Shown in pieces: positions 1,214 through 18,696 of a stretch of DNA of 32,000 bases. A program made the position numbers and the translations under genes. The stretch's first letter is position 1; each line of letters opens with the position of its first letter. The notes under the pieces were generated by a model that was not told the origin of the DNA, did not search any database, and was given only the letters and a program-made list of their open reading frames with translations. The DNA is from Cereibacter sphaeroides 2.4.1 (GTDB lineage: Bacteria; Pseudomonadota; Alphaproteobacteria; Rhodobacterales; Rhodobacteraceae). The DNA lies in NCBI RefSeq assembly GCF_000012905.2, contig NC_007493.2, forward strand, positions 120,001 through 152,000, given 5' to 3'.

Positions 1214-2746
1214 TCAGAAGGCGAAATAGAGGAACTCGGCGGGCGGACTGCCGAAGATGCGCAGCAGGGTGATGCAGAGCACCGCCCCCACCATCAGCCC
1301 GTGCGTCGGCGAGGGCTTCCAGTAGAAGGCGGCGAAACGGGCCCGCTCGCGCGCGGGTGCCTTCGGCGCGGTGTGGGCCTTCAGCCCCACCCATTCCTGC
1401 GTGTTCGGCAGCGCCCAGATGATGAAGAGCCCGAACAGCACCACCACCGTATCGCCGAGATAGAGATAGCCGCCGTGCTCGCCCATCCCGGCGAGGCCAC
1501 GCACCACCGTCAGGGCGTCGGTGAGGGTGGGCGACTTGAAGAAGACGAAGCTCACCGTCACCGCAAGGAAGGTCACCAGCACCTTGACCGGCGACAGGAG
1601 CGACGAGAGCGGCGCAGGGATCCGGGCCCGTCCCGCTGAGGTCGCGCGCCAGCCGTGGTTCGCGACCAGCATGGCCCCGTGCAGCAGCCCGAAGACGATG
1701 AACTGCCAGCCCGCCCCGTGCCAGACCCCGGCAAGGCCCATGGTCACCAGCGTCGGGAAAGCGAGCATCACGAGGAAGGGCAGCACCTGCGGCTTGCGGG
1801 GATTCCAGACCGGCTGGCCGCGCTCCATCCGCCGGCGCATCACGGTCTTGGTGATCGGGTTGTAGAGATAGGCCGTCAGGAAGCGCGTGAGCGTGATGTG
1901 CCAGCGCGACCAGAATTCGATGATCGTCTGCGACTTGTAGGGCGAGTCGAAGTTGAAGGGCAGCAGGATCCCGAACATGAGCCCGAGGCCGATGGCCATG
2001 TCGGAATAGCCAGAGAAGTCGAAATAGAGCTGGAGCGCGAAGGCCACCGCGCCCCGCCAGGCGAAGGCGAGATAGGCGGCCTCGCCCCCCGCGGCCAGAT
2101 CCCAGAGCGGCTGGGCGAGTGGCGCCAGCGTGTCGGCCATGCCGATCTTCTTGAACAGTCCGAAGCAGAAGACGGTGAAGCCCAGCACCAGCTTGGCCTG
2201 ATCGATGCGGAAGGTCTCGTCCCGCTCGATCTGGGGCACGATCTCGCGGTAATGCACGATCGGCCCGGCGATCAGCTGCGGGAAGAAGGTGATGAACATC
2301 GCATAGCGGATCGGGTTCGGCCGCCCGATCCGGCCCTCGTGGCAATCCACCAGATAGGCGATCTGCTGGAAGGTATAGAACGAGATCGCGAGCGGCAGCA
2401 GGATGTGCGGCACCGGCACGTCCGCCGCGGTCAGGGCGTTCAGGATCTCGACCAGGAAGCCCGCATATTTGAAGAAGCCGATGGCCGCGAGATTGGCGGC
2501 CACCCCCGCAAGCAGGAGCCACCGGCGCGGCGTCTCGACCAGCATGATCCCGAGCAGGTAGTTCAGCCCCAGCGAGATCAGCAGCATCGGCAGGAACGCG
2601 ACGTTCCACCAGCCGTAGAAGAAGAGCGAAGCCGCAACCAGCCAGCCCACGGCCCAGAGCTTGTTCGGAAGCCTGCCCAGGAGATAATAGCCGAGAAGGC
2701 TCAACGGCAGGAAGGCGAACAGGAACTCCGGGCTGTGGAACAGCAT
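1214..2746 (-). CDS. MBOAT-family membrane O-acyltransferase (AlgI/DltB-like) with extra C-terminal helices ending in FLYFAF
   Basis: The N-terminus MLFHSPEFLFAFLPL is typical of AlgI/DltB. MBOAT motifs FWSRWHITLTRFLTAYLYNP and GVWHGAGW are present and the protein is polytopic and hydrophobic. Its ATG overlaps the upstream carrier-protein stop (TGATG). Confidence 0.9.
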   Translation of the reverse strand: MLFHSPEFLFAFLPLSLLGYYLLGRLPNKLWAVGWLVAASLFFYGWWNVAFLPMLLISLGLNYLLGIMLVETPRRWLLLAGVAANLAAIGFFKYAGFLVEILNALTAADVPVPHILLPLAISFYTFQQIAYLVDCHEGRIGRPNPIRYAMFITFFPQLIAGPIVHYREIVPQIERDETFRIDQAKLVLGFTVFCFGLFKKIGMADTLAPLAQPLWDLAAGGEAAYLAFAWRGAVAFALQLYFDFSGYSDMAIGLGLMFGILLPFNFDSPYKSQTIIEFWSRWHITLTRFLTAYLYNPITKTVMRRRMERGQPVWNPRKPQVLPFLVMLAFPTLVTMGLAGVWHGAGWQFIVFGLLHGAMLVANHGWRATSAGRARIPAPLSSLLSPVKVLVTFLAVTVSFVFFKSPTLTDALTVVRGLAGMGEHGGYLYLGDTVVVLFGLFIIWALPNTQEWVGLKAHTAPKAPARERARFAAFYWKPSPTHGLMVGAVLCITLLRIFGSPPAEFLYFAF

Positions 2747-2991
2747 CAGGCGGCCTTCTTGTCCCGGATCAGGGCCACGAAATCACCGACGTTCTTCAGA
2801 TCTTCGAGTTCGGACGACCTGAACGAGACGCCGAAGCGCATCTCGGAGGCGACGACGATGTTGATGTGGTTGAAGCTGTCCCACTCGGCCACGTCATGCG
2901 CGGAGAGGTCGGGGGTGGCCACCAGCTCGGGATCGTCGAACACCTGCCGGAGGATGGAGGTCAGGCCGTCGTAAATCTCGGGGTCGGTCAT
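2746..2991 (-). CDS. Small acyl/peptidyl carrier protein (DltC-like, phosphopantetheine attachment Ser in EWDSFNHI)
   Basis: 81 aa and acidic, with a DS(F/L) carrier-protein motif. GAGGAG lies upstream of the ATG. It is translationally coupled to the MBOAT. Confidence 0.85.
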   Translation of the reverse strand: MTDPEIYDGLTSILRQVFDDPELVATPDLSAHDVAEWDSFNHINIVVASEMRFGVSFRSSELEDLKNVGDFVALIRDKKAA

Positions 2992-3051: not shown

Positions 3052-4965
3052 TCAGTGGGTCACGCCGCGCTCGGTCAGCCGGATATGCGGCGGGGGCGGC
3101 GGCGGCACAGCCAGATCGAGCCGCCAGAGCGCCGCAAGGCCGTCGGCGCCCGCCGGCGCGAAGCCCAGCCGCGGGAAGAGATCGGCGACCATGCCGTTCT
3201 TGGGCGTCGGCCGGTAGCAGCCGACGACCGTCGAGGCGCCGGCCTGCCGGGCGGCGCGCGCGATGACGGCGGCCACCGCCTCCTCGACCCTTCGTCCCAG
3301 CACGCGGCAACTCATGAGCCAGGTGTCCACCTCGAACAGCTGGCCGCCCTCCCCATCGGGGCGCAGCCGGCCCAGCACCACGGAGACGATGCCGTTGTCG
3401 CCGAACCGATCCTTCAGCCGCACGCAGAAGGTGAGCATCCCCGGATCGCCGATCATCGCCCCCACCTCTGCCTCGGTGTAGCGCCGGGTGGTCAGGTTGA
3501 ACTGGTTCGTCTTGTTGATGAGCTGCGTCACCCGCACTAGATCGACGGGCTGCACCGGCCCCACCTGCATCTCCATGTCGAGCCCGGCGAGGAAGCTCTC
3601 CATGTCGGGAGCCACCACCTCGAGCTGGCGCCGCGCGGCATTGGCCGCATATTGCTCGGCCCGCAGCGCGTCGTCGGGCGTGTAGCCCACCGCCTCGAAG
3701 AGACCGGCGGCGGCAAGGCAGCGGATGTAGGTTTCGGGCTCCTCGGGCACTTCCGGCACGGCCACGGCCGGGAACTGTTCGCGCAGAAGCGCCCGCTCGG
3801 CCGGGTTGTCGTCGAAGAAGACCAGCGCCTCGAGCCCGAGGTTCAGCTCCTGTGCGATGCGCTGCAGGCCCTGGCCCTTGTCCTCCCAGTTGGCCACGAA
3901 GGCCGCGAAGTCCGACCGGCGCAGCACCATCTCGGGATGATCGAAGGCGGCGAGCGCGCGCTCGGGATCGTTCTTCGAGCTGACGGCAAGCAGGATGCCC
4001 CGCTCGCGCAGCGCCCGGCAATAGAGCTGGAAGGCCTTGAAGGCCTCGCCCCGCGCCGAGCCCTCGCCGATCACGATCCCCTCGATGCCGTCGTCGCCGA
4101 TCACCCCGCCCCAGAGCGTGTTGTCGAGATCGAGCACCAGCACCTTGCGGGTCAGGCCGCGCATGGCGGCGAGGATCCGCGCCACCTGATCGCCGAACCA
4201 CGGCCCCGCCGCAGGGCTCACATGCTGCTTGGCATGGAGCCACATGAGCCGGTCCTGCAGCGCGTCGAGCCCTTCGGCCTCGGCCGCGGCGACCGGATCG
4301 AGGATCAGCACCCGCTCCTCGCGGGCGGCGCGGATCAGCCGGTGCTGCATCTCGGCCACCATGGCCCGGCGCGCGGCGGGGATCAGCCGGTCGAGATGAC
4401 CGAAGACCGGATCGGTCGTCGGCACCGGAAGCTGCTGGATCACCGCGGCGCCTATCGCCCGAAGCGCGCGCCAGCGGTGGACGGTCTCGGACAGGCTCGC
4501 CTCGAGCGCCGCCTCCACCTCATCGGGCGGGGTGGCCAGCGGCAGTTGCGGCACGAGATCCGTCTCGCAGGAGCAGATCAGCACCGCATCGGGCCTGAAG
4601 GCCGCCAGTTCGGAGGCGGGATCGAGGATCGCCTGCCGCCACTGACCGTAGGGCGGCACATGAACCTCGAGCGCGAGGCCGCGGCGGAGCGCGCCCACGG
4701 TCAGACCCGGCACCAGATGCTCGACGGTGAAGGAGCCCAGAAGCGCGAGCCGCAGCCGCGGCACTTCGGGCGGGGCCTTGGCCGTGCGGAGAGCCCGTTC
4801 GATCCGGGTGGTCTGGAGGAAGTCGATGCGGTGCCCGGCCAGATGCCGCAGGGCGCGCCAGGCCTCGGGCGGATCGTCGGCAGCCCGTGTGCGGGCCCGG
4901 GCCAGATCGCCCTCGAAATCCGCCGCGACCGGCAGCCAGTGCAGTTCAAGCGGTTTGCTTTTCAT
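3052..4965 (-). CDS. FkbH-like / HAD superfamily subfamily IIIC protein with C-terminal GNAT-like region
   Basis: The signature LVLDLDNTLWGGVIGDDGIEGI (DxDxT HAD motif in the FkbH context) is present, and the 637-aa multi-domain length is typical of the family. A strong SD (GGAGGTGGAG) precedes the ATG at 4965. Confidence 0.85.
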   Translation of the reverse strand: MKSKPLELHWLPVAADFEGDLARARTRAADDPPEAWRALRHLAGHRIDFLQTTRIERALRTAKAPPEVPRLRLALLGSFTVEHLVPGLTVGALRRGLALEVHVPPYGQWRQAILDPASELAAFRPDAVLICSCETDLVPQLPLATPPDEVEAALEASLSETVHRWRALRAIGAAVIQQLPVPTTDPVFGHLDRLIPAARRAMVAEMQHRLIRAAREERVLILDPVAAAEAEGLDALQDRLMWLHAKQHVSPAAGPWFGDQVARILAAMRGLTRKVLVLDLDNTLWGGVIGDDGIEGIVIGEGSARGEAFKAFQLYCRALRERGILLAVSSKNDPERALAAFDHPEMVLRRSDFAAFVANWEDKGQGLQRIAQELNLGLEALVFFDDNPAERALLREQFPAVAVPEVPEEPETYIRCLAAAGLFEAVGYTPDDALRAEQYAANAARRQLEVVAPDMESFLAGLDMEMQVGPVQPVDLVRVTQLINKTNQFNLTTRRYTEAEVGAMIGDPGMLTFCVRLKDRFGDNGIVSVVLGRLRPDGEGGQLFEVDTWLMSCRVLGRRVEEAVAAVIARAARQAGASTVVGCYRPTPKNGMVADLFPRLGFAPAGADGLAALWRLDLAVPPPPPPHIRLTERGVTH

Positions 4966-5686
4966 CGCTCTCCACCTCCTCAGCCAGATGAATGTCCTGC
5001 ACCGTCCCGGCGGGGGGCGGTGCGTCGAGCGCGGCGACGAGCGCCTGCGCCACGCGTTCAGGGGACAGGAACCTGCCTCCGGCGTCGGCCCGGGCGCGCT
5101 CCAGCAGGCGCGGGTCGAAGGCGCCGAGCATCGGCGTCTCGACGAAGCCGGGGGCCACCACGCTCACCCGCAGCCCCGCGGGCCCCAGTTCGGCGGCGGC
5201 CGCCGCGAGCAGGGCGCGCAGCGCCGCCTTCTGCGCCACATAGGCGGCCATGTGGCGGGCCACGGGCGGCTCGGACGCGGCCGACAGGACGGCCAGCACA
5301 TGCCCGCCGCCCGCGCGCCGCCACCAGAGCCGCCAGGCCGTGGCGATCAGCGCGTGACAGCCGGCAAGCGCCGCCGCCTGAAGCGCCAGATCCTCGCCCT
5401 GACGCCCGAAGGGCGCCACGAAGGGCGCGGGCCAGGCGCAGAGCGCGAGTGACGCGGGCGGCTCGGGAAGTGCTGCCAGCGCGGTCTCGAGCGCTGCGGG
5501 ATCCTGAAGCGGCAGCGCCAGCGGCTCGGCCCGTCCGCCCGCCTGCGTGATCTCGGCGGCAAGGGCCCGGGCCCGTCCGGCCCCCGCGCCGTAGCCGACC
5601 CACACCGGGTGCTGCCGGGCCGCGATCCGGCAGAGTGCGCCACCGATGGCGCCGCTGCCGCCCGTCACGAGGAGCCCACCGGTCAC
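4946..5686 (-). CDS. Short-chain dehydrogenase/reductase (SDR)
   Basis: Rossmann motif VTGGSGAIGGA and catalytic YVAQK (YxxxK). It has a GTG start that overlaps the upstream stop (GTGA), and its 3' end overlaps the FkbH-like start by 20 nt. Confidence 0.85.
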   Translation of the reverse strand: MTGGLLVTGGSGAIGGALCRIAARQHPVWVGYGAGAGRARALAAEITQAGGRAEPLALPLQDPAALETALAALPEPPASLALCAWPAPFVAPFGRQGEDLALQAAALAGCHALIATAWRLWWRRAGGGHVLAVLSAASEPPVARHMAAYVAQKAALRALLAAAAAELGPAGLRVSVVAPGFVETPMLGAFDPRLLERARADAGGRFLSPERVAQALVAALDAPPPAGTVQDIHLAEEVESDEKQTA

Positions 5687-6087
5687 TCGGCCGCCTCGCG
5701 GGCAGACCGCGGTTCGGGCAGCAGGGTCATGGCCTCGCCCTCGGCGATGCGCCGGCCGCCGGCCGAGATCGTCAGGCGGATGAGCCGGATGCCGAGAGGC
5801 GGCGTCTCGTGCTTCACCTCGGCCTCGAGCTGCGCGCGTTCGCCCACGAGGAGCGGCCGGCGGAACTTCATCGTCAGCGATTGCCAGACGCAGCCATGCC
5901 CCGGCAGCGCCGTGCCGAGCAGCCGGGACACTTCGGCGATCAGCAGGCCGCCATAGACGATGGGGCCGTCGAATCCCCTTTCGCGGGCGAAGAAGGTGTC
6001 GAAGTGGATGGGATTGTCGTCCCCGCTGATGGAGCGAAAGGCCTCCATCCGATCGGTGGTCACGGTGAAATCGAACGCTATCGTCAA
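5683..6087 (-). CDS. MaoC-like (R)-hydratase/dehydratase hotdog-fold protein
   Basis: The conserved SGDDNPIHFD motif and hotdog-length core are present. I favour the in-frame TTG at 6087, which is preceded by GAGG at 6-nt spacing. The ORF-track start at 6246 adds about 50 basic, low-complexity residues across an AT-richer promoter-like stretch. Confidence 0.75.
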   Translation of the reverse strand: MTIAFDFTVTTDRMEAFRSISGDDNPIHFDTFFARERGFDGPIVYGGLLIAEVSRLLGTALPGHGCVWQSLTMKFRRPLLVGERAQLEAEVKHETPPLGIRLIRLTISAGGRRIAEGEAMTLLPEPRSAREAAE

Positions 6088-6364
6088 ATTGCGCCTCGAA
6101 TCGAATTCATGTCGCAGCGAAGCCGCCGCAAGTCGTTGATCAAAAAAACGGAGCTGCAAATGCGGGCGCAGCCGGGGGTAGAGCCTATAGGAAGCAGGAT
6201 ACCACGAGCTTTGTTCCCCAATCGAACTTTTTTTCCTCCGCCTCAAGAAAGCGCTCGCTCTGCGGCCAAGGGCGCGTATCTTTCCCGGAGTGACCCGGCG
6301 CCGATTTGTCGGTGGGCCTTTCCTCAGGCCGGGCGCGGTTTGTTGAGATTGAAGGCAGCTTGGG

Positions 6365-7279
6365 ATGAGAAGTTATATTCTGTCCGCCGCCGCAGGCATG
6401 GTCCTGATGGCAGGTGCACTAGCGGCGGCCTTCACGGCGGCTGCGGCGATCTGGCCCGACAAGATGCCGCCGCCCGCGATCTCGGGCAGCATCGCGACCG
6501 ATGAGAAGCTGAAATATCTGCGCGACCGCGGGCGGGAGCCGGTGGATGTCCTTGCTATCGGGTCCTCCATCACATGGAAGCATCTCGACGGCGCGCCGTT
6601 CGACGGCCGGGTGGGCAATTTCGTGAACGGCGGCACGGCCTATCTTCAGGTGCATGAGATCCGAACCTTCACCCGCTTCTATCTGGACCTCTATCCCCGG
6701 ATCTCGCAGGTGGTGATGCTGAGCGCGCTGCCCGACTACGGCACCTGCGCGGGAGAAGGGCGGATCATGGATCTCGAGGATGCAGCCTCCTACGTCCGCG
6801 GCCGTATGCCGGAAGCCTGGTTCTACATGCGCTATTTCGCCCCCCTCCGCTACGTCCTGCAGGCGCGGCGGCGGTCCGAGCGGCTGAAGCCCTACGATGC
6901 CTTCGGCTACTGGCTGGACCGGCACGGCACGACGCCCTCGATGCTGCCGACCGAGGTGGGCTACGACCTGCGCTACGACGAGATCGCGCTCGATCCCGCC
7001 TGCCTCGAGGCGCTCGACGGGCTGAACCGCGATCTCACGGCGCGGGGCGTGACCTTCACGCTGGTGATGACCCCGGTCGCGCCGCGCTATTCCGACCTCC
7101 ACCCGGCCACCACGCGGGCGACCGAGCGGATCGAGAGCTTCGCGCGCAGCCGGGGGATCCGGCTTATCGACTTCTTCGGCGATCCTTCCTTCGAGGACGC
7201 CGATTTCTGGGATGCCTTTCACATGCAGTGGCCGGCAGCCCGCCGACTGTCGCGCGAGGTGGCAGATACACTTCTCTGA
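6365..7279 (+). CDS. Membrane-anchored SGNH/DltD-like (AlgX/AlgJ-like) acyl-transferase/esterase candidate
   Basis: An N-terminal TM anchor (ILSAAAGMVLMAGALAAAFTAAAAIW) is followed by a block-I-like LAIGSSIT, an FVNGG element and a C-terminal DAFH (DxxH) motif. It is divergent from the MBOAT operon. Confidence 0.6.
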   Translation: MRSYILSAAAGMVLMAGALAAAFTAAAAIWPDKMPPPAISGSIATDEKLKYLRDRGREPVDVLAIGSSITWKHLDGAPFDGRVGNFVNGGTAYLQVHEIRTFTRFYLDLYPRISQVVMLSALPDYGTCAGEGRIMDLEDAASYVRGRMPEAWFYMRYFAPLRYVLQARRRSERLKPYDAFGYWLDRHGTTPSMLPTEVGYDLRYDEIALDPACLEALDGLNRDLTARGVTFTLVMTPVAPRYSDLHPATTRATERIESFARSRGIRLIDFFGDPSFEDADFWDAFHMQWPAARRLSREVADTLL

Positions 7280-7357: not shown

Positions 7358-8131
7358 ATGAAGGCCGTATTGCTTGCGGGTGGCTATGGAACGCGGTTGA
7401 GCGAGGAGACGGGCATCGTCCCGAAACCCCTCGTCGAGATCGGCGGTCGGCCGATCCTGTGGCACATCATGAAGATCTACGCCGCGCACGGGATCACCGA
7501 TTTCGTGATCTGCTGCGGCTACAAGGGTCACATGATCAAGGATTATTTCCTGAGCTACTTCCACCGCAACAGCGACATCACGATCGACGTCCGCTCGAAC
7601 CAGATCGAGCTGCACCGTCCCGTGTCCGAGCCGTGGCGCGTGACGATGGTCGATACCGGGCTCGAGACCATGACCGGCGGGCGGATCAAGCGCATCCGCG
7701 AGCATATCGGCGACGAAACCTTCTGCCTGACCTATGGCGACGGTGTCTCGGACATCGACATCGGCAGCCTCGTGGCCTTCCACAAGGAGCAGGGCGTGGC
7801 AGGCACCGTCACCGCCGTGCGACTGCCCGGCCGCTTCGGCGCGCTCGACCTGTCGGAAGGCACGCGGGTCAACCGGCTGCGCGAGAAGAGCATGATGGAC
7901 GGCCAGACCATCAACGGCGGCTTCTTCGTCCTCGAACCTTCGGTCTTCGACTATATCGACGGCGATGCCACGGTCTGGGAGGAAGAGCCGCTGCAGGGCC
8001 TCGTCCGCGACGGCCAGCTCGCGGTCTACCGCCACGAAGGCTTCTGGCAGAACATGGACACGCTGCGCGACAAGACGCTGCTGCAGGGTCTGTGGGAGAA
8101 GGGCAAGGCCCCCTGGAAGATCTGGGACTGA
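7358..8131 (+). CDS. rfbF: Glucose-1-phosphate cytidylyltransferase
   Basis: [41 protein letters not shown] and its 257-aa length are collinear with RfbF. Confidence 0.9.
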
Positions 8132-8366: not shown

Positions 8367-9374
8367 CTACCACTGCAGGCTCTCGGCCTCGCGGTTGGGC
8401 AGCACCGCCAGGAACCGCAGCGGCATGGCGGGCACGAGCCCCGGGTCCAGCGCCGCGAGCTTCCAGGTGAGCGAGAGCGTCGGCACCCGGCCCTGCAGGA
8501 GCGCGCGCAGGAAGAGGTAGCTGTAGGCGCGGCGATAGCGGCGGATGCGGTCGGCCACCGTCCGGCGGTCGGACGCCGTCAGCGAGAGCCGCCGGCCGAC
8601 CGTGTGGAAGAACATCAGCATGTAGCCGGTGCGGTCCACCACCTTGGTGGATTTCCAGTCGAACGCGTCGAAATAGACGTTCACGCCCCGGCCGCAGAGC
8701 ACGTTCATCTTCCAGGACACGACGGTGCGCGCCCCGGCCGCGATCAGCGACAGCCAGAAGAGCTGGTCCTCGCCGGCGTTCCGCAGCCGCGGGTCGAAGC
8801 GCAGCGTCTCGACGAAGCTCTGCCGCACCACGACCGTCGAGGTCTGGCTGAGGTAGGTATCGACCGACGCCGCCATGATCGAGGGCTGGTCGAAGGCCAG
8901 GATCGGCGCCTCGGCATCGAGCACGGTGACGCCCGCGTGCCGCTCCTCGCGCATCCGGCGCAGGGCGGGGGTGCGCTCGAAATAGGTGATGTCGTCGTCG
9001 GTGCGCTGGTGGTCGCAGAAATGGAAGTCGTAGCCGCGCGCGAGCAGATCGAGCGCATCCGCGAGATGGGTGGGCTGCCAGATGTCGTCGGAATCGAGGA
9101 AGGCCACATGGTCGAAGCCCTCTGCCGCCACGGCATCGAGCCCCGCGTTCCGCGCGGCGCCGGGGCCGCCGTTCTTCTGGGCGATCAGCCGCACGGGAAC
9201 CTTGCCCTGCCGCCCCTCGACCTCGGACCGGGCGGACACGGGGGACTCGTCGTCGATGACGAAGACGGTGAGGCTATGGCCTTCGGGAAGGATCTGCCCA
9301 TCGACCGAGTCGAGCGCGCGAGAGAGGATCCCCGCCTCCCGCTGATAGAAGGGGATGATGACTGCGGTTCTCAT
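8367..9374 (-). CDS. Family 2 glycosyltransferase
   Basis: The GT2 N-terminus MRTAVIIPFYQRE, VFVIDDESP and a DSDD (DxD) motif are present. I chose the internal ATG at 9374 (AGGAC upstream) over the track start at 9437. Confidence 0.85.
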   Translation of the reverse strand: MRTAVIIPFYQREAGILSRALDSVDGQILPEGHSLTVFVIDDESPVSARSEVEGRQGKVPVRLIAQKNGGPGAARNAGLDAVAAEGFDHVAFLDSDDIWQPTHLADALDLLARGYDFHFCDHQRTDDDITYFERTPALRRMREERHAGVTVLDAEAPILAFDQPSIMAASVDTYLSQTSTVVVRQSFVETLRFDPRLRNAGEDQLFWLSLIAAGARTVVSWKMNVLCGRGVNVYFDAFDWKSTKVVDRTGYMLMFFHTVGRRLSLTASDRRTVADRIRRYRRAYSYLFLRALLQGRVPTLSLTWKLAALDPGLVPAMPLRFLAVLPNREAESLQW

Positions 9375-9715
9375 GCTGAAAAGTCCTGAAGCAAATGTCT
9401 CTGTCAATGAATCTCGGGGCCGCGGCGGGGGCGCCACAGCCGCCCAGCGTCCGAACAGCCGTAACGGCCATGTTATCCAGAGAGCCGGGGCCGAGACAAA
9501 CGCTTTTCCGCCTCGCCCATGCGCCGGGCCGAGGCTCCGCCCAGAAGGATGGCGCGCTCCGGGTCAGGGCCCCGACCGATACCACTGTGCGCCTGCCGGG
9601 CGCTCGCCGGATGAGCCGCCCGGCCTGCCATCCCGCCCGGCGCCACACCGAGGCTTTTAAAGACGACCGTGACGGGCAAAGAGGCCGGGAGTGCAGCATC
9701 GCGGTTAGTCGCTGT

Positions 9716-10810
9716 TCAGTAGCCGGTCATCTCGAGATAGCCCCGCCCGGTATGGCTGCCCCGGATCGCGATGGGGCCTTCCCAGTAGGGCACGGAGGTG
9801 TCCATCCAGGCGCGGTCGTTCATGGCCTCCACCGTCACATCGAGCCCCTTCTCGGGCAGTGCCACCCGCCATTCCACCGGGATCTTCCGCACCGTCACCT
9901 CGGCCGCGCGCCCCGGCGTCACTTGGAGGGCGCCGGGCGGCATCGGTTCGGGCCGGCCTTCGGGCGAGATCCAGGTGGCGCTGGTGTAGCCCTCTCCGCC
10001 GTCGCGGAGGCGGAAGCCCATCAGCCGGGCCCCGTCGTCGAACATGAGCGAGAACCAGTCCCAGCCGGTCTGGTCCTCGGCGAGCGGCTGCGAGGACCAT
10101 TCCCGGTCGAGCCAGGCCTTGCCGGTGACCGCGATGCTCTTGCCCTCCACCTCGATCCGGCCCTCGACCCGGTAGAAGGGCTGGGAATAGTACCAGCTCG
10201 CCTGCCCCGCCGCCGACTTCACCGAATAGCCCTGCTCGCCCTGCGCGACGAGCGGACCCTCGGCCTTGAGCCGCAGATCGTAGGAAAAGCCGGATCCCGA
10301 GGCGGCGAGCGAGAGCGCCGACAGCGCATCCGCGCCGGGGGAGGCGGTGCCGGTCATGTGCCAGTCGTCGATCCAGGCCTCGAAGGGCTCGGCCGTCACG
10401 CCCGCCTGCCCGATCCCGCCGCGCCCGTAGCGCTCGGCCACGAAATGCCGGTCGGGCGTGGTCAGGGCCGCATGGCCGAGCCAGAGCTGCGGGCTCTCCC
10501 AGCCCGCCCCCTCGTGCGGGGCCAGCGCCGAGCGGAACAGCGTCCACTGGATGCCGTAGTCGCGCCCGTCCTCGCCGGTCAGGACCGAGGTCAGATACCA
10601 CCATTCGATGCGGTACTCGGGATGGGGCCCGTGATCGCGCGGAAAGACGAGCGGCCGGCCCCGCTGCGGCGTGGCGAAGCCCTCGGCCGTGGCGCCGAGG
10701 CCGGCGAAGCCCTGTGCCCCTGCGGGCGCGGTGTGGCCGAGCGTCACGAGAAGGATCGCCGCCGCGATGCGAAGGGCGAAGCGGAAGGGGGAAAGCCTCT
10801 CAGCGTTCAT
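9716..10810 (-). CDS. Secreted AttH-like / CrtC-domain lipocalin-like protein
   Basis: A signal peptide (LRIAAAILLVTLGHTAPAGAQG) is followed by DHGPHPEYRIEWWYLTSVL, typical of the AttH/hydroxyneurosporene-synthase-like family. The ATG at 10810 has GAGGG 9 nt upstream; the alternative TTG is at 10816. It overlaps the permease 3' end. Confidence 0.8.
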   Translation of the reverse strand: MNAERLSPFRFALRIAAAILLVTLGHTAPAGAQGFAGLGATAEGFATPQRGRPLVFPRDHGPHPEYRIEWWYLTSVLTGEDGRDYGIQWTLFRSALAPHEGAGWESPQLWLGHAALTTPDRHFVAERYGRGGIGQAGVTAEPFEAWIDDWHMTGTASPGADALSALSLAASGSGFSYDLRLKAEGPLVAQGEQGYSVKSAAGQASWYYSQPFYRVEGRIEVEGKSIAVTGKAWLDREWSSQPLAEDQTGWDWFSLMFDDGARLMGFRLRDGGEGYTSATWISPEGRPEPMPPGALQVTPGRAAEVTVRKIPVEWRVALPEKGLDVTVEAMNDRAWMDTSVPYWEGPIAIRGSHTGRGYLEMTGY

Positions 10811-13187
10811 TGGCAAAGACCCTCAGGAGGTCGGCCGGCCGCAGCCGGGCCAGGCGCCGCACCGGCACGGCGGCGGCGAGCGCCGCGGCCACGAGGGCCA
10901 GCGTGCCGAGCGTGAGCCAGTCGAGCGGGAAGACATGCATGGGCAGGCGCCAGCCGAAGGCCTGCACATTGACCACCGCCAGCAGCACCCAGGCGAGGGC
11001 CAGCCCGAGCGGCAGGGCCGCGGCCATCGTGCCTGCCGCCAGAAGGAGCGTGCGGAGCATCTCGAGCCGCGCGAGCCGCGCCTTGGTCAGCCCCATGGCC
11101 CAGACGGGGGCCAGCTGCGGCAGCCGCATCCCCGACAGGACCATGAGGCTTGCGAACATGGCAAGCCCCGCCACCCCCAGCGTCAGCACATTGAGCGCGG
11201 CCGTCACGGCGAAGGTGCGCTCGAACACCTGCAGCGAGAAGCCCTTGAGGCTCGCCTGATCGATCAGCCCCTCGTCGCCCAGATCGAAGGCCGTGCGCAT
11301 CTCCTCGGCCAGCGCGGCCGCGCGGTCGGGGGCCACGCGGATGCCGTAGCGCCGCCGCTCGGCCTCGGGGTGCAGCGCGAAGAAACGGTCGAGGCCCAGG
11401 ATCACCTGCGCCGAAGGGTTGCCGTAATCGCTGTAGACGGCCGCGATCCGCCCCTGCCAGCCCGGCAGGCGGATCGGATCGCCCGGCTCCAGCCCCTCGC
11501 GGCGGGCGAGCTGTTCGTTGACGAGCGCCCAGTCGCCGCCCGCGAGCAGGTCCCACACGCCCGGCACCTCGGCCAGCAGCGGCCAGTTCTCGCGGTAGGT
11601 CGGATGGTCCGCCATGCCGTAAAGCTGCGCGGGCTGGCCCAGCACCTCGGTCTCGGCCCGCACGATGGGCAGCACCGCCTCGGCCCGCGGCTCGAGCCAG
11701 CGCACGACCCGGTCCGCGGTGTCCCGATCGGGGGCGCTGAGATAGAGCTCGAAGGCGAGGCGCTGGTCGAGCCATCCGGTGAAGGTCAGCCGGAAGCTCG
11801 AGACCATGGTGCCAACGCCGATATTGGCCGCAAGCGCAAGGAGGAGCGCCATCAGCGCGAGCGAGAGGCCGGGCAGCTGCTGGCGCGTGTCGGCCCAGAA
11901 CCACTGCGCGATGGGCCCGCGTGCGAGCCCCTGCGCCCCCCGCAGGAGGGCCGCGAGCAGCACGGGCAACAGGAGCGCTGCGCCCAGAAGCAGCGCCGCG
12001 AGCAGCACGAAGGCCGCGACGATCCCCCGGCCCCAGAGCAGGAGGACGCCCGCGAGGATCAGGAGGCCCACCGCCGCCATCGCCTGCCGCCAGAGCGCCC
12101 GCTCGGAGGCCACGGCCCAGGCGCGGGGCTGGGCGGGGGCCAGTAGCGGCAGATGGGCCACGCGCCAGAGGCTCTGGGCCGAGGAGACGAGGGTGCCCAG
12201 AAGCGCGATCCCGAGCCCGGCCGCGGCCCATCCCGGGCGGAAGGCGAGCGTGCCCGGCACCTCGGCGCCGTAGAGGCCGCGCAGGGTCGCCGCCACATCG
12301 GGCAGCAGCAGCGCCGCCACCAGATAGCCGAGCAGGAGGCCGGCCGCGCCCGCGAGTAGCGCGAAGAGCAGGAGTTCCGCGAAGAGAAGTCCGATCAACG
12401 TCCGTGCCGTGACGCCAAGCGCGCGGAGGGTTCGAAACATCGGGCGGCGCTGCTCGAAGGCGAGCCCGATGGCGGAATGGACTATGAAGAGGCCCACGGC
12501 AAAGGAGAGAAGCCCGAAGGCGGTGAGGTTCAGGTGAAAACTGTCGGTGAGCCGCGCCACGTCGCTCTCGCTGTCGGGCGGGATGAGGCGTAGCCCATCG
12601 GGCAGGGGCCCCGGCTGCGGCGCCGCGGGATCGAGGAGGAGATGCGAGATCCGCCCCTCCATGCCCAGAAGCCTCTGCGCCTGCCCGATATCCATGAGCC
12701 CGGTGCCGGGGGGCAGCCCTTCGGCCGCGCGCATCGGCGGCAGCTCCGCGCCCTGCATCCGCGCCAGCGTCTCGGGGTCGGCGAAGATCAGCCCCGGCGC
12801 GGTCAGGAAGGGCAGCAGCGCGTCGCCCTCGCCGAACTCGACCTGCCGGGCCGGGGCGGGCAGGGTCAGCGGGTCGATCCCGATCAGGCGCAGGCTCCGC
12901 CGCTCGTCGATGCGCAGCCGCCCTTCGACCACCGGCGAGACGCGCCAGCCTGCCCGGCGCAGGGCGACGTAGGTCTCCTGCGGCACAGGCCCCTCGGCCG
13001 CGATCCGGCTCAGCCGATCCTGCCCGAGCGTCGCCGCGGCTTGGGCATAGCTCGCCCGTGCCTCGGCATTGATCGCCTGCACCCCCGACCAGAGCGCCGT
13101 GGCGAGCGCGAGCCCCAGAAGCAGCATCGCAAGCTGCAGCGGGCTCCGCCGCCAGTGCGAGAGCAGCGCCGCCAGCGCGGTGCTCAT
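10800..13187 (-). CDS. ABC transporter permease with duplicated FtsX-type domains
   Basis: It is large and polytopic, with two FtsX-like hydrophobic blocks separated by soluble domains. The ATG at 13187 (MSTALAALLSHWRR) forms an ATGA overlap with the ATPase stop. The track start at 13487 adds an Arg/Pro-rich shadow extension. Confidence 0.85.
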   Translation of the reverse strand: MSTALAALLSHWRRSPLQLAMLLLGLALATALWSGVQAINAEARASYAQAAATLGQDRLSRIAAEGPVPQETYVALRRAGWRVSPVVEGRLRIDERRSLRLIGIDPLTLPAPARQVEFGEGDALLPFLTAPGLIFADPETLARMQGAELPPMRAAEGLPPGTGLMDIGQAQRLLGMEGRISHLLLDPAAPQPGPLPDGLRLIPPDSESDVARLTDSFHLNLTAFGLLSFAVGLFIVHSAIGLAFEQRRPMFRTLRALGVTARTLIGLLFAELLLFALLAGAAGLLLGYLVAALLLPDVAATLRGLYGAEVPGTLAFRPGWAAAGLGIALLGTLVSSAQSLWRVAHLPLLAPAQPRAWAVASERALWRQAMAAVGLLILAGVLLLWGRGIVAAFVLLAALLLGAALLLPVLLAALLRGAQGLARGPIAQWFWADTRQQLPGLSLALMALLLALAANIGVGTMVSSFRLTFTGWLDQRLAFELYLSAPDRDTADRVVRWLEPRAEAVLPIVRAETEVLGQPAQLYGMADHPTYRENWPLLAEVPGVWDLLAGGDWALVNEQLARREGLEPGDPIRLPGWQGRIAAVYSDYGNPSAQVILGLDRFFALHPEAERRRYGIRVAPDRAAALAEEMRTAFDLGDEGLIDQASLKGFSLQVFERTFAVTAALNVLTLGVAGLAMFASLMVLSGMRLPQLAPVWAMGLTKARLARLEMLRTLLLAAGTMAAALPLGLALAWVLLAVVNVQAFGWRLPMHVFPLDWLTLGTLALVAAALAAAVPVRRLARLRPADLLRVFANER

Positions 13188-13864
13188 GCGACCCGCCCCG
13201 CCGAGAGCTGCACCCGGCCCTGAAGCCGCCCCGCGAGGCGGGCCGAATGGGTGACCATCAGAAGCCCGGCGCCCGTCTGGCTCACGAGGCGCAGGAAAAG
13301 CGCCATGACGGCATCGCCCGTGGCCTCGTCGAGGTTGCCGGTGGGCTCGTCGGCCAGCACGAGGCGGGGGCGGGCGGCAAGCGTCCGGCCGATGGCCACC
13401 CGCTGCTGCTGGCCGCCCGAGAGCTGCTCGGGATAGCGGTGCAGGCAGGCGGCAAGCCCCAGCGTCTCGGCCAGCTCGGCCTGCCATTGGGGATCGTGCC
13501 GACCGGCGAGGCGGGACTGAAAGGCAAGATTGGCCGCCACGTCGAGCGAGGGGATCAGGTTGAACTGCTGGAAGACGAGCCCGACCGTGCCCCGCCGCAG
13601 ACGCGCGCGCTCGGCATCGCCGGCCTGCGAGATATCATGGCCCGCCACGACGATCCGGCCCGCGTCCGCCGCATCGAGCCCGGCCGCCAGATGCAGGAGC
13701 GTGCTCTTGCCGCTGCCCGACTCTCCCGTCAGCGCGAGGCTCTCGCCCGCGGCGAGCGTCAGGTCCACCCCGGCCAGAACCTGCACCGGCCCCTCGCCGG
13801 TCGCGTAGCTTTTGGTCACGCCCTCGAGCGAGAGCAGCTTGTCCGAAGGATCCTTCACCCGCAC
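13184..13864 (-). CDS. ABC transporter ATP-binding protein (LolD/MacB-like)
   Basis: Walker A GESGSGKST, signature LSGGQQQRV and Walker B LVLADEPT are present. The GTG at 13864 lies 8 nt after GGAAGGAAGG. The maximal ORF extends to 13915. Confidence 0.85.
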   Translation of the reverse strand: MRVKDPSDKLLSLEGVTKSYATGEGPVQVLAGVDLTLAAGESLALTGESGSGKSTLLHLAAGLDAADAGRIVVAGHDISQAGDAERARLRRGTVGLVFQQFNLIPSLDVAANLAFQSRLAGRHDPQWQAELAETLGLAACLHRYPEQLSGGQQQRVAIGRTLAARPRLVLADEPTGNLDEATGDAVMALFLRLVSQTGAGLLMVTHSARLAGRLQGRVQLSAGRVA

Positions 13865-14149: not shown

Positions 14150-15208
14150 TCAGATCCGCACGAGGTGGTTGTCCCAGGCGGCCGCGGTGCGCTCGAGCGG
14201 ACGGAAGCCCTCGGGCGTGAGGCGGGTGATCGCGCCACCGCCATCGGTCACGAGGAAGCCGCCCGGCAGCGGCGCCACACCGCAGGCATCGGGCCGCGCC
14301 AGCGTGGCCAGCGGCGCGCCGTCCTCGGCATGGAGCTGGACGACCCCGCCCCGCGGCGAGGTGAGCGCGATCATCCCCTCCGAGCGGGCGATGGAGCCCG
14401 CATAGCCGCGCATGGCGAAGAGATCCTCCTCGCGCGGGGGGCAGAGCCGCAACGCCTCGCCGCGGCGGTGCAGGCCCAGCAGCGGCACCGGCTCGGCCGG
14501 ATCGCCCTCCCACTGCATCGCGAAGGCGACCGTTCCGTCCTCGGCCAGCGCAAGGTGGCGGATCGAGTTCTGCCGCAGCTCCTCGGGCAGTTCGGCCTGT
14601 TCCAGAAGCGCGCCCTCGGGCGAGAGGTAGGAGAGGTTCGGGCGCATCGTCTCGACATTGAGCTTGCTGCGGTCCTGCGGATCGGTCCGGATGCCGCCGT
14701 TGGCCACCACCAGATTGTCCGAGCCCGGCATCCGGCGCAGCTCGTGCGGGCCGATGCCGCCCGAGGGAAACTCGTCCACGCGGTGCCATGCCGCGGTATC
14801 CCAGATGCCCACCACGCCCTCGGAGGTCTCGGCCACCACCTCCGAAGTGTAGAGCAGGGACCCGTCCGCGGAATAGGCGCCGTGGCCGTTGAACTGCCGC
14901 CCGTCGGGCGGCGTCAGGCGGGCGCGCAGCGTGCCGCTCGCGCAGCCGATCACCAGCGCATAGGTGCCGGGGCGGCGGGCGAAGGCCACCGCCTCGGCCC
15001 GAGTCGGATGGGCGGCGGCAGCATGGCCCCGCGCGGGCAACGGGATCGCGAAGAGCATCGCGCCCGCCTCGGTCAGGCCGTGCAGCGCGAAGTCGCCCGA
15101 GGGCATCCGCGCGGCGGCGAGGAAGGCGGGGCTGCCCGCGTCGGCCCAGCCGAGGCGCGGCAGGGCCGAGGCGACGAGGCCGGCGAGGATGTGGCGTCGC
15201 GTGGCCAT
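14150..15208 (-). CDS. DUF1513 family periplasmic protein (Tat signal)
   Basis: There is a twin-arginine N-terminus (MATRRHILAGL), and ARGH, FARRPG, GIGPHE and VVANGGIRT match the DUF1513 pattern. Confidence 0.8.
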   Translation of the reverse strand: MATRRHILAGLVASALPRLGWADAGSPAFLAAARMPSGDFALHGLTEAGAMLFAIPLPARGHAAAAHPTRAEAVAFARRPGTYALVIGCASGTLRARLTPPDGRQFNGHGAYSADGSLLYTSEVVAETSEGVVGIWDTAAWHRVDEFPSGGIGPHELRRMPGSDNLVVANGGIRTDPQDRSKLNVETMRPNLSYLSPEGALLEQAELPEELRQNSIRHLALAEDGTVAFAMQWEGDPAEPVPLLGLHRRGEALRLCPPREEDLFAMRGYAGSIARSEGMIALTSPRGGVVQLHAEDGAPLATLARPDACGVAPLPGGFLVTDGGGAITRLTPEGFRPLERTAAAWDNHLVRI

Positions 15209-15209
15209 C

Positions 15210-16199
15210 TCAGTCTCCGTCCGCGGCGTTGAAGCCCACGCTCACGCCCAGGGCGCCGCCGACCTCGGCCGAGAGCACATCGCGGAGCGCATGCAGCCGC
15301 TGCTGCAGGATCTCCACCCGGAGCCGTCCCGAAGGGTCCGCCACAGCGTCGAAGCGCGGATCGTCGAGACGGGCTGCCCGCGACCGCGCCTGATCGAAAC
15401 CCTCGCGGCTGCGCGGGCTGTCGGGGGCCAGCGCCAGCGCCAGCCGTTCGAGGGCGGCGAGCGACAGTTCGACATTGCGCAGGCTGCGGCCCGAGAGCCG
15501 CGCCTCGGCCCGCTCGGGCCGGGGTCGGTCGAAGCTGCCGAGCGGGCGGCCGAGCCGCTGGTCGGCGGTGAATTCGAGCCCCGCCATGAGCTGGGTGAAC
15601 AGCGCCTGCCGCGCCTCGGCCTCGGTCAGGAAACGGTCGTTGCCGTCTCTGCCCGCCGTCAGCACGAGCGGTGCAAAGGTCTCGCGCCAGTCCGTCTCGA
15701 GATCGGCGGCCATGCGGGCCAGATCCGCCGCCGTCGCGCGGGTGAGCGCACAGGCATAGTCGCCGGCGAAGGCCGGATCGTAGAGCAGCCGCTCGAGCGC
15801 GAAGAGGCCGCGGGCCGCCACCGAGACCTCGGCGAACCGCTCGGGCGCGAGGAGGTCCGGGTCGGCCGCCTCGAGGAGGCGTGCCTGCGTGCGGGCGCCG
15901 CTGCCCTTCGGATCGGGCCAGAAGGCGATGGCGAGGGCGCGCCCGTCGGTCTCGGACGGCCCGATGCGCAGATGCGAGACAGCCATCCAGGCGTCGAAGG
16001 CCGCGTTCCAGGGCGCCTTCAGCGCCTCGGCGCTGCAGTCGGCGCGGGCGGCCGTGTCGAGGGCTGCGGTGGCGGCGGTGAAGCCCTCATAGCCGGGTAG
16101 GATGGTCTCGTTCACCGCCTCGGGCACGCCCGCGCGGAGCGGCACGGCGGCCAGAAGGGCGAGCAGGCCCCAGAGGGGGGCGGAGAGGGCGGGACGCAT
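15210..16199 (-). CDS. Imelysin-like periplasmic protein (second copy)
   Basis: It has a signal peptide (MRPALSAPLWGLLALLAAVPLRAG). Length and position match the imelysin paralogue of imelysin/DUF1111/imelysin/DUF1513 clusters. Its start overlaps the DUF1111 stop (TGATG). Confidence 0.7.
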   Translation of the reverse strand: MRPALSAPLWGLLALLAAVPLRAGVPEAVNETILPGYEGFTAATAALDTAARADCSAEALKAPWNAAFDAWMAVSHLRIGPSETDGRALAIAFWPDPKGSGARTQARLLEAADPDLLAPERFAEVSVAARGLFALERLLYDPAFAGDYACALTRATAADLARMAADLETDWRETFAPLVLTAGRDGNDRFLTEAEARQALFTQLMAGLEFTADQRLGRPLGSFDRPRPERAEARLSGRSLRNVELSLAALERLALALAPDSPRSREGFDQARSRAARLDDPRFDAVADPSGRLRVEILQQRLHALRDVLSAEVGGALGVSVGFNAADGD

Positions 16200-17707
16200 C
16201 AGAGATCCTCCACGAAGGCAACAAGGGCGGCACGATCCGGGGCGGGCAGGGCCATGACGCGGGCCCTGGCGGCCTCGGCCTCGCCGCCGTGCCAGAGCAC
16301 CGCCTCGAGGATGGAGCGGGCGCGGCCGTCATGCAGGAAGTTGGCATGTCCGCTCACCTGCTCGGTGAGCCCGATCCCCCAAAGGGGCGCGGTACGCCAT
16401 TCGCGCCCGGTGGCGCGGCCCTCGGGACGCCCGTCGGCCAGCCCCTCGCCCATGTCGTGCAGCAGAAGGTCGGTGTAGGGCCAGATCAGCTGGAAGCTCT
16501 GCTCGGGCTGGTCCTTCAGCCGATGGGTCACGAATTTCGGCACATGGCAGGCGGGGCAGCCCGCCTCGTGGAACAGCTGCTTGCCGCGCAGCACCTGCGG
16601 ATGCTCGACCCGCCGCCGCTCGGGCACGGCGAGGTTGCGGGCATAGAAGGCGGTCAGCGCGAGGCCCGTGCGGTCGATCTCGAGATTGTCGCGCTTGCCG
16701 GGCTCGATCCCGTGGGGTGCTGCACGGCAGGCGGCCTGCGCCTCGGTGCATTCCCCCCATGGCTCGGGGAAGAGTGCGTTCGCGATGCCCATGTCGCCCG
16801 AGAAGGCCGCGGCCGATTGCTGGAGAACGGTGGGTGCGCCTGCCTTGAGCCCGAAGCGGCCCAGCATCGGCGCATCGGCTTCGGCCGACCAGACGAAGCT
16901 CGGCCGGCCCGAGATGCCGTCGCCGTCCCGGTCGTCCGGATCGGCATGGGTGAGGATGTCGGCGGCGGGGATCGCCTCGAGAAGCCCAAGACCGATCATC
17001 TGCGGCGTGACGCGGGGCGAGAGCATCACACCGGCCGCCAACGGCCCGTAGCCCGGATCCTCGATAGAGTAGGAGGGTTTGCGCAGCGTCACCACGGTAC
17101 CGTCGCCGAGCGTGACCGGCACCTCCTGCCAGTCGATCCGCATCCGGCCCTCGGGCGCGAGGCCGGGGGCGGCGAAGTCCTGAAGCTGGCCGCCGTAGGT
17201 GGGCTCGGCGCTGGTGGCGATCCACTCCTCGATCCCCTCGGGCGTGGGCCCGCCCGGCACCGAGAGCCGCAGGAACATCGAGACCGCATCGTCCCCGGGG
17301 CCCTCCGGCACATGGCCGCGCCCGTCCTTCAGGTGGCAGTTCTGGCAACCGCGCGCATTGTAGAGCGGCCCGAGCCCGTCGGACGCCTGCGTCGAGGAGG
17401 GCGAGGCCACCCAGAGCTTGCGGAAGAGCCCGTTGCCGAGCTTGAAATCCATCTCGCGCTCGAAGGGCATGTTGCCCGAGGAGAGCGAGAAGGCATCCGC
17501 CGTGTCGCGCGCGCGCACGCTCGCGGCCCCGCCGGGCATCGCCTCGAAGGCCTCCGGTGCCGAGAAGTCGGTGGGCGGTGCGAGGACGCCCGCGATCCGC
17601 GCCGCCTCGGCCGCCGTCCGCGGCACGACGGTCAGGTTCGGCGGATCGAGCGGCTCGGCTGCGACGGGAAAGGCCAGGAAACTGAGCAGAACGGGCAAAC
17701 GGGACAT
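16199..17707 (-). CDS. DUF1111 di-haem cytochrome c-type protein (often annotated thiol oxidoreductase / peroxidase-like)
   Basis: Two CxxCH motifs (CQNCH, CPACH) and a signal peptide (MSRLPVLLSFLAFPVAA) are present. The ATG at 17707 is preferred over the track start at 17839. Confidence 0.85.
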   Translation of the reverse strand: MSRLPVLLSFLAFPVAAEPLDPPNLTVVPRTAAEAARIAGVLAPPTDFSAPEAFEAMPGGAASVRARDTADAFSLSSGNMPFEREMDFKLGNGLFRKLWVASPSSTQASDGLGPLYNARGCQNCHLKDGRGHVPEGPGDDAVSMFLRLSVPGGPTPEGIEEWIATSAEPTYGGQLQDFAAPGLAPEGRMRIDWQEVPVTLGDGTVVTLRKPSYSIEDPGYGPLAAGVMLSPRVTPQMIGLGLLEAIPAADILTHADPDDRDGDGISGRPSFVWSAEADAPMLGRFGLKAGAPTVLQQSAAAFSGDMGIANALFPEPWGECTEAQAACRAAPHGIEPGKRDNLEIDRTGLALTAFYARNLAVPERRRVEHPQVLRGKQLFHEAGCPACHVPKFVTHRLKDQPEQSFQLIWPYTDLLLHDMGEGLADGRPEGRATGREWRTAPLWGIGLTEQVSGHANFLHDGRARSILEAVLWHGGEAEAARARVMALPAPDRAALVAFVEDL

Positions 17708-17762
17708 GGAGTGGAATCCTTTCCCCGCCTGTCTCGCGCCATTCCCCGAGTCTTTCAATCGG

Positions 17763-17810
17763 AAAAAGAGGCCTCGCTCGCGCCCGGGAGGCTCGCCGGA
17801 GAGGGAGGCC
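17763..17810 (-). terminator. Rho-independent terminator candidate downstream of bfr
   Basis: On the minus strand, a long GC hairpin (GGCCTCCCTC...GAGCGAGGCC, one mismatch) is followed by TCTTTTTCC. Confidence 0.55.
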
Positions 17811-17885
17811 GGCATGCCGGCCGCAAACGGTCGGCACACCGCGCGCAGCCGACCCCGGGGGCCGGCGGCAAAGCCGCGCCGGGCG

Positions 17886-18371
17886 TCACTCGGCTTCGTC
17901 GGCCGGCTTCGCGTTGAGCATCCCGTAATTCTGCTCGCCGATCGAGCCCATCAGGTCGATCTGGGTCTCGAGATAGTCGATATGGCCTTCCTCGTCGGCG
18001 ATCAGCTCCTCGAAGAGCATCTTGCTGGGATAGTCGCGCACCTTCTCGCAGTGGTCGCGCGCCTCGATATAGAGGGTGCGGGCATCGTGCTCGGCGGCAA
18101 GGTCGGCATCGAGCGTCTCGCGCAGGGTCTGGCCGATGCGCAGCGGGTTGAGTCGCTGCAGGTTCGGATGGCCCCCGAGGAAGATGATGCGCTGGATGAG
18201 CTTGTCGGCATGGTGCATCTCCTCGATGCTTTCCTTGCGCGACTTGTGGGCGATGCTGCCGAAGCCCCAGTCTTCCTGAAGCCGGTAATGCAGCCAGTAC
18301 TGGCTGACGGCGGTCAGCTCCGACCGGAGCGCCGCGTTCAGATATTCAATGACCTTTGCGTCACCCTGCAT
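17886..18371 (-). CDS. bfr: Bacterioferritin
   Basis: [36 protein letters not shown], 161 aa, with the haem-ligand Met context [10 protein letters not shown]. Confidence 0.95.
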
Positions 18372-18615: not shown

Positions 18616-18696
18616 CGGTCTCTCCCGGCGGGGTTGCTTTCCGCCTGTTCTATCCGGGCCGCCCCTTGCGGAGGTTGCGGCCCGGCAAGGTCGAGG

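Follow-up and report, generated by a model that had tools for sequence, protein, structure and literature searches.

The window analysed here is a stretch of 32,000 nucleotides from Cereibacter sphaeroides 2.4.1 (contig NC_007493.2, positions 120,001 to 152,000 of the forward strand). The subject is the C-terminal tail of an MBOAT family O-acyltransferase encoded on its minus strand, together with the genes that accompany it. The minus-strand gene order is maoC, sdr, fkbH-like, acp and mboat, with overlaps among the maoC, sdr and fkbH-like open reading frames (ORFs) and with the stop of acp overlapping the start of mboat as TGATG. A gene for an SGNH-fold protein is divergent from this group and is followed by rfbF; a family 2 glycosyltransferase (GT2) gene lies further on, on the minus strand, and hslU is convergent with the MBOAT gene. 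The last six codons of the MBOAT gene (reverse complement of 1217-1234) read TTC CTC TAT TTC GCC TTC and are followed by TGA at 1214-1216, so that the protein ends in ...THGLMVGAVLCITLLRIFGSPPAEFLYFAF. The original prediction, made from the nucleotide sequence alone, described the hexapeptide FLYFAF as following a hydrophobic helix and a GSPPAE linker, which the sequence confirms, and proposed that it is an acyl-shuttle peptide fused to the MBOAT and working with the SGNH protein. The MBOAT gene has the following features:

1214-2746, minus strand: MBOAT family O-acyltransferase of 510 amino acids (aa), assigned from PF03062, DltB homology, the catalytic His and Foldseek
1217-1234, minus strand: FLYFAF hexapeptide (F505-L-Y507-F508-A-F510) with the FxYxxF motif, in which Tyr507 is the presumed acyl acceptor, assigned from sequence and conservation
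1235-1468, minus strand: C-terminal extension of approximately residues 427-504 without a DltB counterpart, assigned from the end of the phmmer alignment, hydropathy and charge, and the AlphaFold2 model

The ORF matches Pfam family PF03062 with an E-value of 6e-20. The NCBIfam DltB model TIGR04091 gives 173 bits, which is below its equivalog cutoff of 375. A phmmer comparison with DltB of S. thermophilus (6BUG) aligns residues 115-404 with an E-value of 1e-24, and the MBOAT is about 95 residues longer than DltB. In this alignment His343 pairs with the active-site His336 of DltB and His283 pairs with DltB His289. Both DltB residues are key to its active site (PMC11035591), and both His343 and His283 are invariant in an alignment of 50 MBOAT homologues (46-82% identity). 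Three window proteins that were looked up are identical to the database entries ABA77674, ABA77676 and ABA77679. The MBOAT is named "probable alginate O-acetylase AlgI" in the database; the names "AlgI" and "DltB" are family labels for this protein and make no statement of function.

Hydropathy and charge predict the following topology for the C-terminal half of the MBOAT, in which TM denotes a transmembrane helix:

Residues 267-320: cytoplasmic loop containing 10 Lys and Arg residues
Residues 321-339: TM helix, followed by His343 on the outer side and by a TM helix at 344-362
Residues 363-382: cytoplasmic loop with a charge of +3/0
Residues 383-401: TM helix, followed by an outside loop at 402-427
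Residues 428-446: TM helix
Residues 447-482: cytoplasmic loop containing six Lys and Arg residues
Residues 483-501: TM helix, followed by the tail (502-510) on the outside

The AlphaFold2 model of the MBOAT, built with 50 sequences, has a predicted local distance difference test score (pLDDT) of 88.9 and a predicted template modelling score (pTM) of 0.89. Its best Foldseek matches are the DltB structures 8jem and 6bug (probability 1.0, target-normalised TM-score 0.75-0.77). The C-terminal part is modelled as helices at 430-445, 449-453, 465-472 and 480-499. The helix at 465-472 is a short peripheral helix inside the cytoplasmic Lys/Arg-rich loop, and the GSPPAE linker joins the TM helix at 480-499 to the hexapeptide. 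The DltB homology does not extend past residue 404, so the final pair of TM helices is extra to the DltB core. The predicted C-terminal architecture matches the published model of PatA, in which a TM helix, a peripheral cytoplasmic helix and a second TM helix bring the motif to the periplasmic face (PMC12148441). A periplasmic position of the tail is well supported by prediction, with the charge distribution, the DltB alignment and the AlphaFold model in agreement. The topology that the original prediction needed is therefore the one predicted by both hydropathy/charge and AlphaFold2, and the tail does correspond to the fused variant, as the FXYXXF end is predicted to be carried on two extra TM helices beyond the DltB core.

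Conservation and gene context were counted in 80 related loci from GTDB species genomes. The MBOAT ends in F[LI]Y[FYW]xF in 80/80 of these loci, and the extended consensus of the tail is S-x-A-P-[TS]-E-F-[LI]-Y-F-x-F. The 120 best database matches to the MBOAT (44-98% identity) gave a similar result, with F[LI]Y[FY]xF ending 118 of them; the two without the tail, a fragment of 315 aa and a protein of 620 aa, have unrelated C-terminal regions rich in Arg and Ser. A wider set of 149 representatives, taken from a library clustered at 50% identity, is 38-54% identical to the MBOAT. FxYxxF ends 144/149 of these sequences and the Tyr is present in 146/149. Two of the five exceptions retain the Tyr (FLYYQY and FVYFKI), and the remaining three have unrelated endings, two of them below full length. 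F505, Y507, F508 and F510 are invariant in the 50-sequence alignment, in agreement with the expected invariance of the Tyr and the terminal Phe, and there are few other invariant positions in the C-terminal extension. As a negative control, the motif was sought at the end of every stop-to-stop ORF of 50 aa or more in the 80 loci (16,652 ORFs). It ends 81 of them, 81/81 are MBOAT matches, and none of the approximately 16,570 non-MBOAT ORFs has this ending. Within the window, the terminus of the MBOAT is the sole instance of F.Y..F-stop in six frames. The conservation of the tail is beyond chance.

The FXYXXF acyl-shuttle motif has been defined in the literature (PMC12148441). In Dlt systems it is located on the microprotein DltX, whereas other bacterial MBOATs carry it fused to their own C-terminal end, on two extra TM helices. 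The Tyr passes the acyl group to the Ser of an SGNH protein (PMC12148441). The background given in the original prediction, with the shuttle Tyr either on DltX or fused to the MBOAT, is accurate on this point. FLYFAF fits the FXYXXF motif (PMC12148441) and is nearly identical to the motif FLYFGF of S. thermophilus DltX (PMC11035591). The tail is not peculiar to the C. sphaeroides MBOAT. It is near-universal in a large MBOAT family (32,667 representative clusters at E<=1e-3) and is a hallmark that has already been published (Anderson 2025). Therefore the tail is ordinary on its own and adds nothing new beyond confirming this MBOAT as one of the large class that relays acyl groups via a C-terminal tyrosine; the less expected finding is its gene context. 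An outer-membrane-protein-type C-terminal Phe signal was also considered for the tail and was rejected, as the protein is an all-helical inner-membrane MBOAT.

The presumed partner of the MBOAT is encoded on the other side of the cassette:

6365-7279, plus strand: membrane-anchored SGNH-fold protein of 304 aa, the presumed final transferase, assigned from AlphaFold2, Foldseek and conservation

In the AlphaFold2 model of this protein (pLDDT 87.7), residues 2-29 form an N-terminal helix, and an alpha/beta domain comes after it. Foldseek matches the domain to GDSL/SGNH hydrolases with a probability of 1.0, and the matches include DltD (3bma, 7dxm) and PatB (8tlb, 7tjb). The residues G66-S67-S68 are invariant in 74/74 SGNH-like sequences and immediately follow a beta-strand, which is the arrangement of SGNH block I. 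N88 and D283 are each present in 73/74 sequences and H286 in 72/74, and D283-x-x-H286 corresponds to the DxxH of block V. C128 and C213 are also invariant (74/74), which suggests from the sequences a disulfide and so fits a periplasmic location of the domain. A few homologues show sub-threshold Pfam hints of DltD, DUF1574 or GDSL; PF04914 (DltD) has an E-value of 0.03 in 2 of 12 homologues and does not match the window protein. The label "SGNH protein" is correct at the level of the fold and the catalytic residues, and the family is an orphan. The fold, the N-terminal membrane helix and the conserved Ser, Asp and His support the earlier identification of this protein, and a shuttle between it and the MBOAT is supported by their co-occurrence in 73/80 loci, with the acyl-Tyr step assigned by homology.

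The position of the SGNH gene differs among relatives. In the nearest non-Cereibacter relatives (L003, L009, L013 and L024, from about 11600 onward) it is directly downstream of the MBOAT gene on the same strand. The Cereibacter SGNH gene has been relocated past maoC and is divergent, and hslU abuts the MBOAT gene.

The genes between the MBOAT gene and the SGNH gene encode a carrier protein, a candidate loader and two optional tailoring enzymes:

2746-2991, minus strand: dedicated acyl carrier protein (ACP) of 81 aa with a phosphopantetheine site at D38-S39, assigned from the 2lml match and conservation
3052-4965, minus strand: FkbH-type HAD-IIIC loader of 637 aa with an FkbH_N domain, the presumed glyceryl-ACP maker, assigned from TIGR01686, 3slr and conservation
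4946-5686, minus strand: SDR-family reductase, which overlaps fkbH, an optional tailoring gene assigned from family scans
5683-6246, minus strand: MaoC-like dehydratase, which overlaps the SDR gene, an optional tailoring gene assigned from Pfam; the true start may be downstream of the TTG at 6246

The ACP residues W37, D38 and S39 are invariant in 77/77 sequences. Its best match in the PDB is the generic ACP 2lml (E-value 4e-18), and the E-value for DltC is about 0.3. The FkbH-like protein scores 283 bits against TIGR01686, above the curated cutoff of 146.65, and resembles BF1531 (3slr) with an E-value of 2e-58. Each residue of its HAD motif D279-x-D281-x-T283 is present in 73/73 sequences and C553 is present in 72/73. 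UniRef labels the C. johrii orthologue "D-glyceryl-ACP synthase", which is an automatic annotation. No AMP-binding (DltA-type) gene was found in Pfam and NCBIfam scans of the operon genes.

Of the 80 related loci, 76 have an ACP homologue, 75 an FkbH-like gene and 73 an SGNH-like gene. Several of the loci that are short of one cassette gene are short contigs. At least three gene orders of the cassette occur. The SDR gene is present in only 11/80 loci and the MaoC gene in only 8/80, mostly in the nearest relatives. Stutzerimonas and Ensifer have the four genes as a stand-alone operon between unrelated neighbours, which are chemoreceptors and homogentisate catabolism in one and ABC transporters and alkaline phosphatase in the other.

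It is quite likely that FLYFAF serves as a true fused acyl-shuttle motif in a bacterial system for envelope acylation of the MBOAT-SGNH kind, which is fed through the ACP in the following way. By analogy with its family, the FkbH-type enzyme would load a small hydroxyacyl unit derived from glycolysis onto the ACP, most likely a glyceryl unit from 1,3-bisphosphoglycerate. In C. sphaeroides the co-transcribed MaoC and SDR proteins may tailor this cargo, e.g. to lactyl. Judged from the gene content, glyceryl-ACP could be converted via pyruvoyl-ACP to lactyl-ACP, with MaoC dehydrating the glyceryl unit to the pyruvoyl enol and the SDR protein then acting as the reductase. This route is chemically reasonable and could give Cereibacter a cargo that differs from that of the minimal cassette. 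The gene coupling and co-occurrence suggest that the acyl-ACP docks at the cytoplasmic face of the MBOAT. As in DltB/DltX and PatA, His343 would then be the catalyst that moves the acyl group through the membrane to Tyr507, on the flexible periplasmic tail. The acyl group would pass from Tyr507 to Ser67 of the membrane-anchored SGNH protein, which may esterify a periplasmic or envelope acceptor.

Several points weigh against this scheme. Residues 506-510 of the tail are unstructured in the AlphaFold2 model, with a pLDDT below 50. The putative acyl-Tyr507 intermediate is extrapolated from DltX and PatA. The SGNH fold matches have modest TM-scores (query-normalised 0.34-0.49, target-normalised <=0.67), and it is the fold alone that matches: the protein has no significant sequence similarity to DltD, PatB, AlgJ/X or any Pfam family, and searches against the PDB sequences with phmmer and a 12-sequence profile gave no match. 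Gene linkage is the evidence that points to acyl-ACP from the FkbH-like enzyme as the donor, and the same linkage suggests a C3 hydroxyacyl cargo (glyceryl in the minimal cassette); the identities of the cargo and of the acceptor are presumptive. Two loci, L051 and L061, have the MBOAT, the tail and the SGNH protein without an ACP or FkbH gene within 10 kb. Finally, non-Dlt MBOAT/SGNH pathways are stated to use acyl-coenzyme A (acyl-CoA) and to have no carrier protein (PMC12148441).

The last two points would be explained if the tail were a true shuttle and the MBOAT took its acyl group from acyl-CoA (e.g. acetyl-CoA), as PatA and AlgI do, with the ACP and FkbH-like protein serving another step or pathway. 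The poor match of the ACP to DltC, of which it is not an orthologue, is also in favor of such a donor. However, the frequency of the ACP and FkbH-like genes in the related loci, in varied gene orders and in otherwise unrelated neighbourhoods, speaks against a role elsewhere. The overlap of the acp stop with the mboat start couples the two genes translationally, and since the minimal operon has only four genes, the ACP has no other obvious client. The carrier-free arrangement described for fused-tail systems is not found here, as the ACP is overlap-coupled to the MBOAT and accompanies it in 76/80 loci. An acyl-CoA donor is therefore unlikely.

It is also conceivable that the aromatic tail has a structural role, in which it plugs or gates the extracytoplasmic funnel or contacts the SGNH protein, and is not a covalent carrier, so that the MBOAT itself passes the acyl group to the SGNH Ser or the acceptor. 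The motif has aromatic residues that could bind to the aromatic cluster surrounding the active site of DltB (PMC11035591), and the low AlphaFold2 confidence in the tail and the assignment of its chemistry in C. sphaeroides by homology alone would agree with this role. However, the equivalent Tyr is covalently acylated and required in two homologous systems studied by experiment, namely Tyr445 of PatA and the Tyr of DltX, and PatB accepts an acetyl-Tyr hexapeptide as a donor (PMC12148441). The retention of the Tyr across the representatives is also tighter than a purely hydrophobic plug would need. A structural tail without acyl transfer is thus very improbable. A chance resemblance or an ORF-calling artefact in a genome of 70% G+C has nothing but the short length of the motif in its favor and is already refuted by the G+C content of 0.92 at the third codon positions of the MBOAT ORF, the exact C-terminal conservation in homologues and the 0 of approximately 16,570 other ORFs with this ending, so that it has next to no probability.

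The proposed ACP-fed shuttle can be compared with several known systems. PatA/PatB, which O-acetylates peptidoglycan in Neisseria and Campylobacter, shares with C. sphaeroides a fused FXYXXF motif, two extra TM helices, a peripheral helix and a separate SGNH protein. For PatA/PatB the relay from acyl-Tyr to Ser to the polymer has been demonstrated (PMC12148441). Unlike the C. sphaeroides cassette, PatA uses acetyl-CoA as the donor, has no carrier protein or loader and has the Ape1 esterase in its operon, and the C. sphaeroides SGNH protein has no detectable sequence similarity to PatB. The Dlt system (DltABCDX), which D-alanylates teichoic acids in Gram-positives, resembles the cassette in having an SGNH partner anchored at its N-terminus and an operon that stands alone, and DltB is the closest solved structure to the C. 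sphaeroides MBOAT. The Dlt donor is a carrier-protein thioester, and the donor logic of the cassette appears to be alike. The differences are that the motif is fused to the MBOAT instead of being on the DltX microprotein, that the loader is of the FkbH/HAD-IIIC type instead of the DltA adenylating ligase, and that the host, a Gram-negative alphaproteobacterium, lacks teichoic acids. A true Dlt system was rejected, as DltA and a separate DltX are absent, the MBOAT scores below the DltB equivalog cutoff and the ACP is not DltC. By function and architecture the cassette resembles a PatA/PatB-like fused-tail system, and by donor logic it resembles Dlt.

The alginate acetylation proteins AlgI/AlgJ/AlgF/AlgX include an MBOAT of the same family, to which an alignment described in PMC12148441 gives the same type of C-terminal tail. 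Alginate acetylation was rejected for this locus, as there are no AlgJ/F/X homologues and no alginate synthesis genes, and the neighbours are the ACP, FkbH, SDR, MaoC, rfbF and GT2 genes. Glyceryl-ACP formation of the FkbH/OzmB type in polyketide and tetronate pathways also uses an FkbH domain (a HAD phosphatase plus a conserved-Cys acyltransferase) and a discrete ACP. In contrast to those pathways, the cassette has no polyketide synthase or FabH-like client, and the MBOAT is the only plausible consumer of acyl-ACP in the four-gene operon. The peptidoglycan O-acetyltransferase OatA (AT3-SGNH) transfers an acyl group from an extracytoplasmic Tyr to an SGNH Ser (PMC12148441), a step that the cassette would share. 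The AT3 membrane domain of OatA is unrelated to the MBOAT, its Tyr is in a loop, and its domains are fused in one polypeptide.

A literature search found no paper describing an FkbH-ACP-MBOAT-SGNH cassette, although an earlier mention in Schultz et al. 2023 is not excluded. The compact operon is found in Alpha-, Beta- and Gammaproteobacteria and a few other lineages, and it would combine the carrier logic of Dlt with the fused-tail architecture of PatA/AlgI, using a type of loader otherwise known from polyketide pathways. Tentatively, and with somewhat less than even confidence, the cassette can be regarded as a widespread, uncharacterised "Gram-negative Dlt-like" pathway that esterifies an envelope component with a glycolysis-derived C3 hydroxyacid (glyceryl, or possibly lactyl where MaoC and SDR are present). 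If so, the fused-tail class would gain its first member fed by a carrier protein, acyl-CoA would not be the sole donor for fused-tail MBOATs, and the model organism would carry an unknown envelope modification. The chemistry proposed here would imply an undescribed glyceryl or lactyl ester on an envelope molecule of Cereibacter sphaeroides, Stutzerimonas, Ensifer and others. Since the host is genetically tractable, the prediction is directly testable.

The gene context also bears on the possible acceptor. The occurrence of the cassette as a stand-alone operon in many genomes suggests that the acceptor is a common envelope molecule rather than a cluster-specific polysaccharide. A few relatives have their cassettes among sugar-modifying genes. 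The gene that adjoins the C. sphaeroides cassette, rfbF (7358-8131), encodes a glucose-1-phosphate cytidylyltransferase (TIGR02623, 423 bits) and is found within 10 kb in 19/80 loci. This proximity hints that the acceptor in part of the family is a CDP-hexose-derived glycan.

The two loci without ACP and FkbH genes, L051 and L061 (about 8900-13500), have tails of FLYFQF and FLYFKF. Their neighbours are a sugar epimerase/dehydratase, a C-methyltransferase, rfbF and GT2. These loci may be acyl-CoA-fed or trans-fed variants. Stutzerimonas azotifigens DSM 17556 has two complete MBOAT-FkbH-ACP-SGNH cassettes on separate contigs (L017 and L018).

The stops of hslU (1163) and of the MBOAT gene (1214) are convergent and 50 bp apart, and the space between them contains a perfect 15-bp inverted repeat at 1167-1199 (GAGCGCCGGCAGGAG / CTCCTGCCGGCGCTC) with a 3-nt loop. 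A scan of 1100-1300 for promoters and terminators found none; the repeat lacks a T-run, so the scan makes no terminator call. The repeat may act as a bidirectional terminator or a stabilising hairpin. An Rfam scan of the window returned no families.

Past the cassette the window contains unrelated genes. A CrtC-like lipocalin is encoded at 9716-10816 and an 895-aa FtsX-type permease at 10800-13487. An iron-related cluster at 14150-20022 includes DUF1513, two imelysins, a di-haem peroxidase and bacterioferritin. The minus-strand ORF 24264-25778 encodes a fusion protein of 504 aa, in which a polysaccharide-deacetylase-like domain is joined to an OHCU decarboxylase domain, the latter belonging to purine catabolism. 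This ORF adjoins a bicupin gene (23431-24267), and an IclR regulator is located further upstream at 21227-22207.

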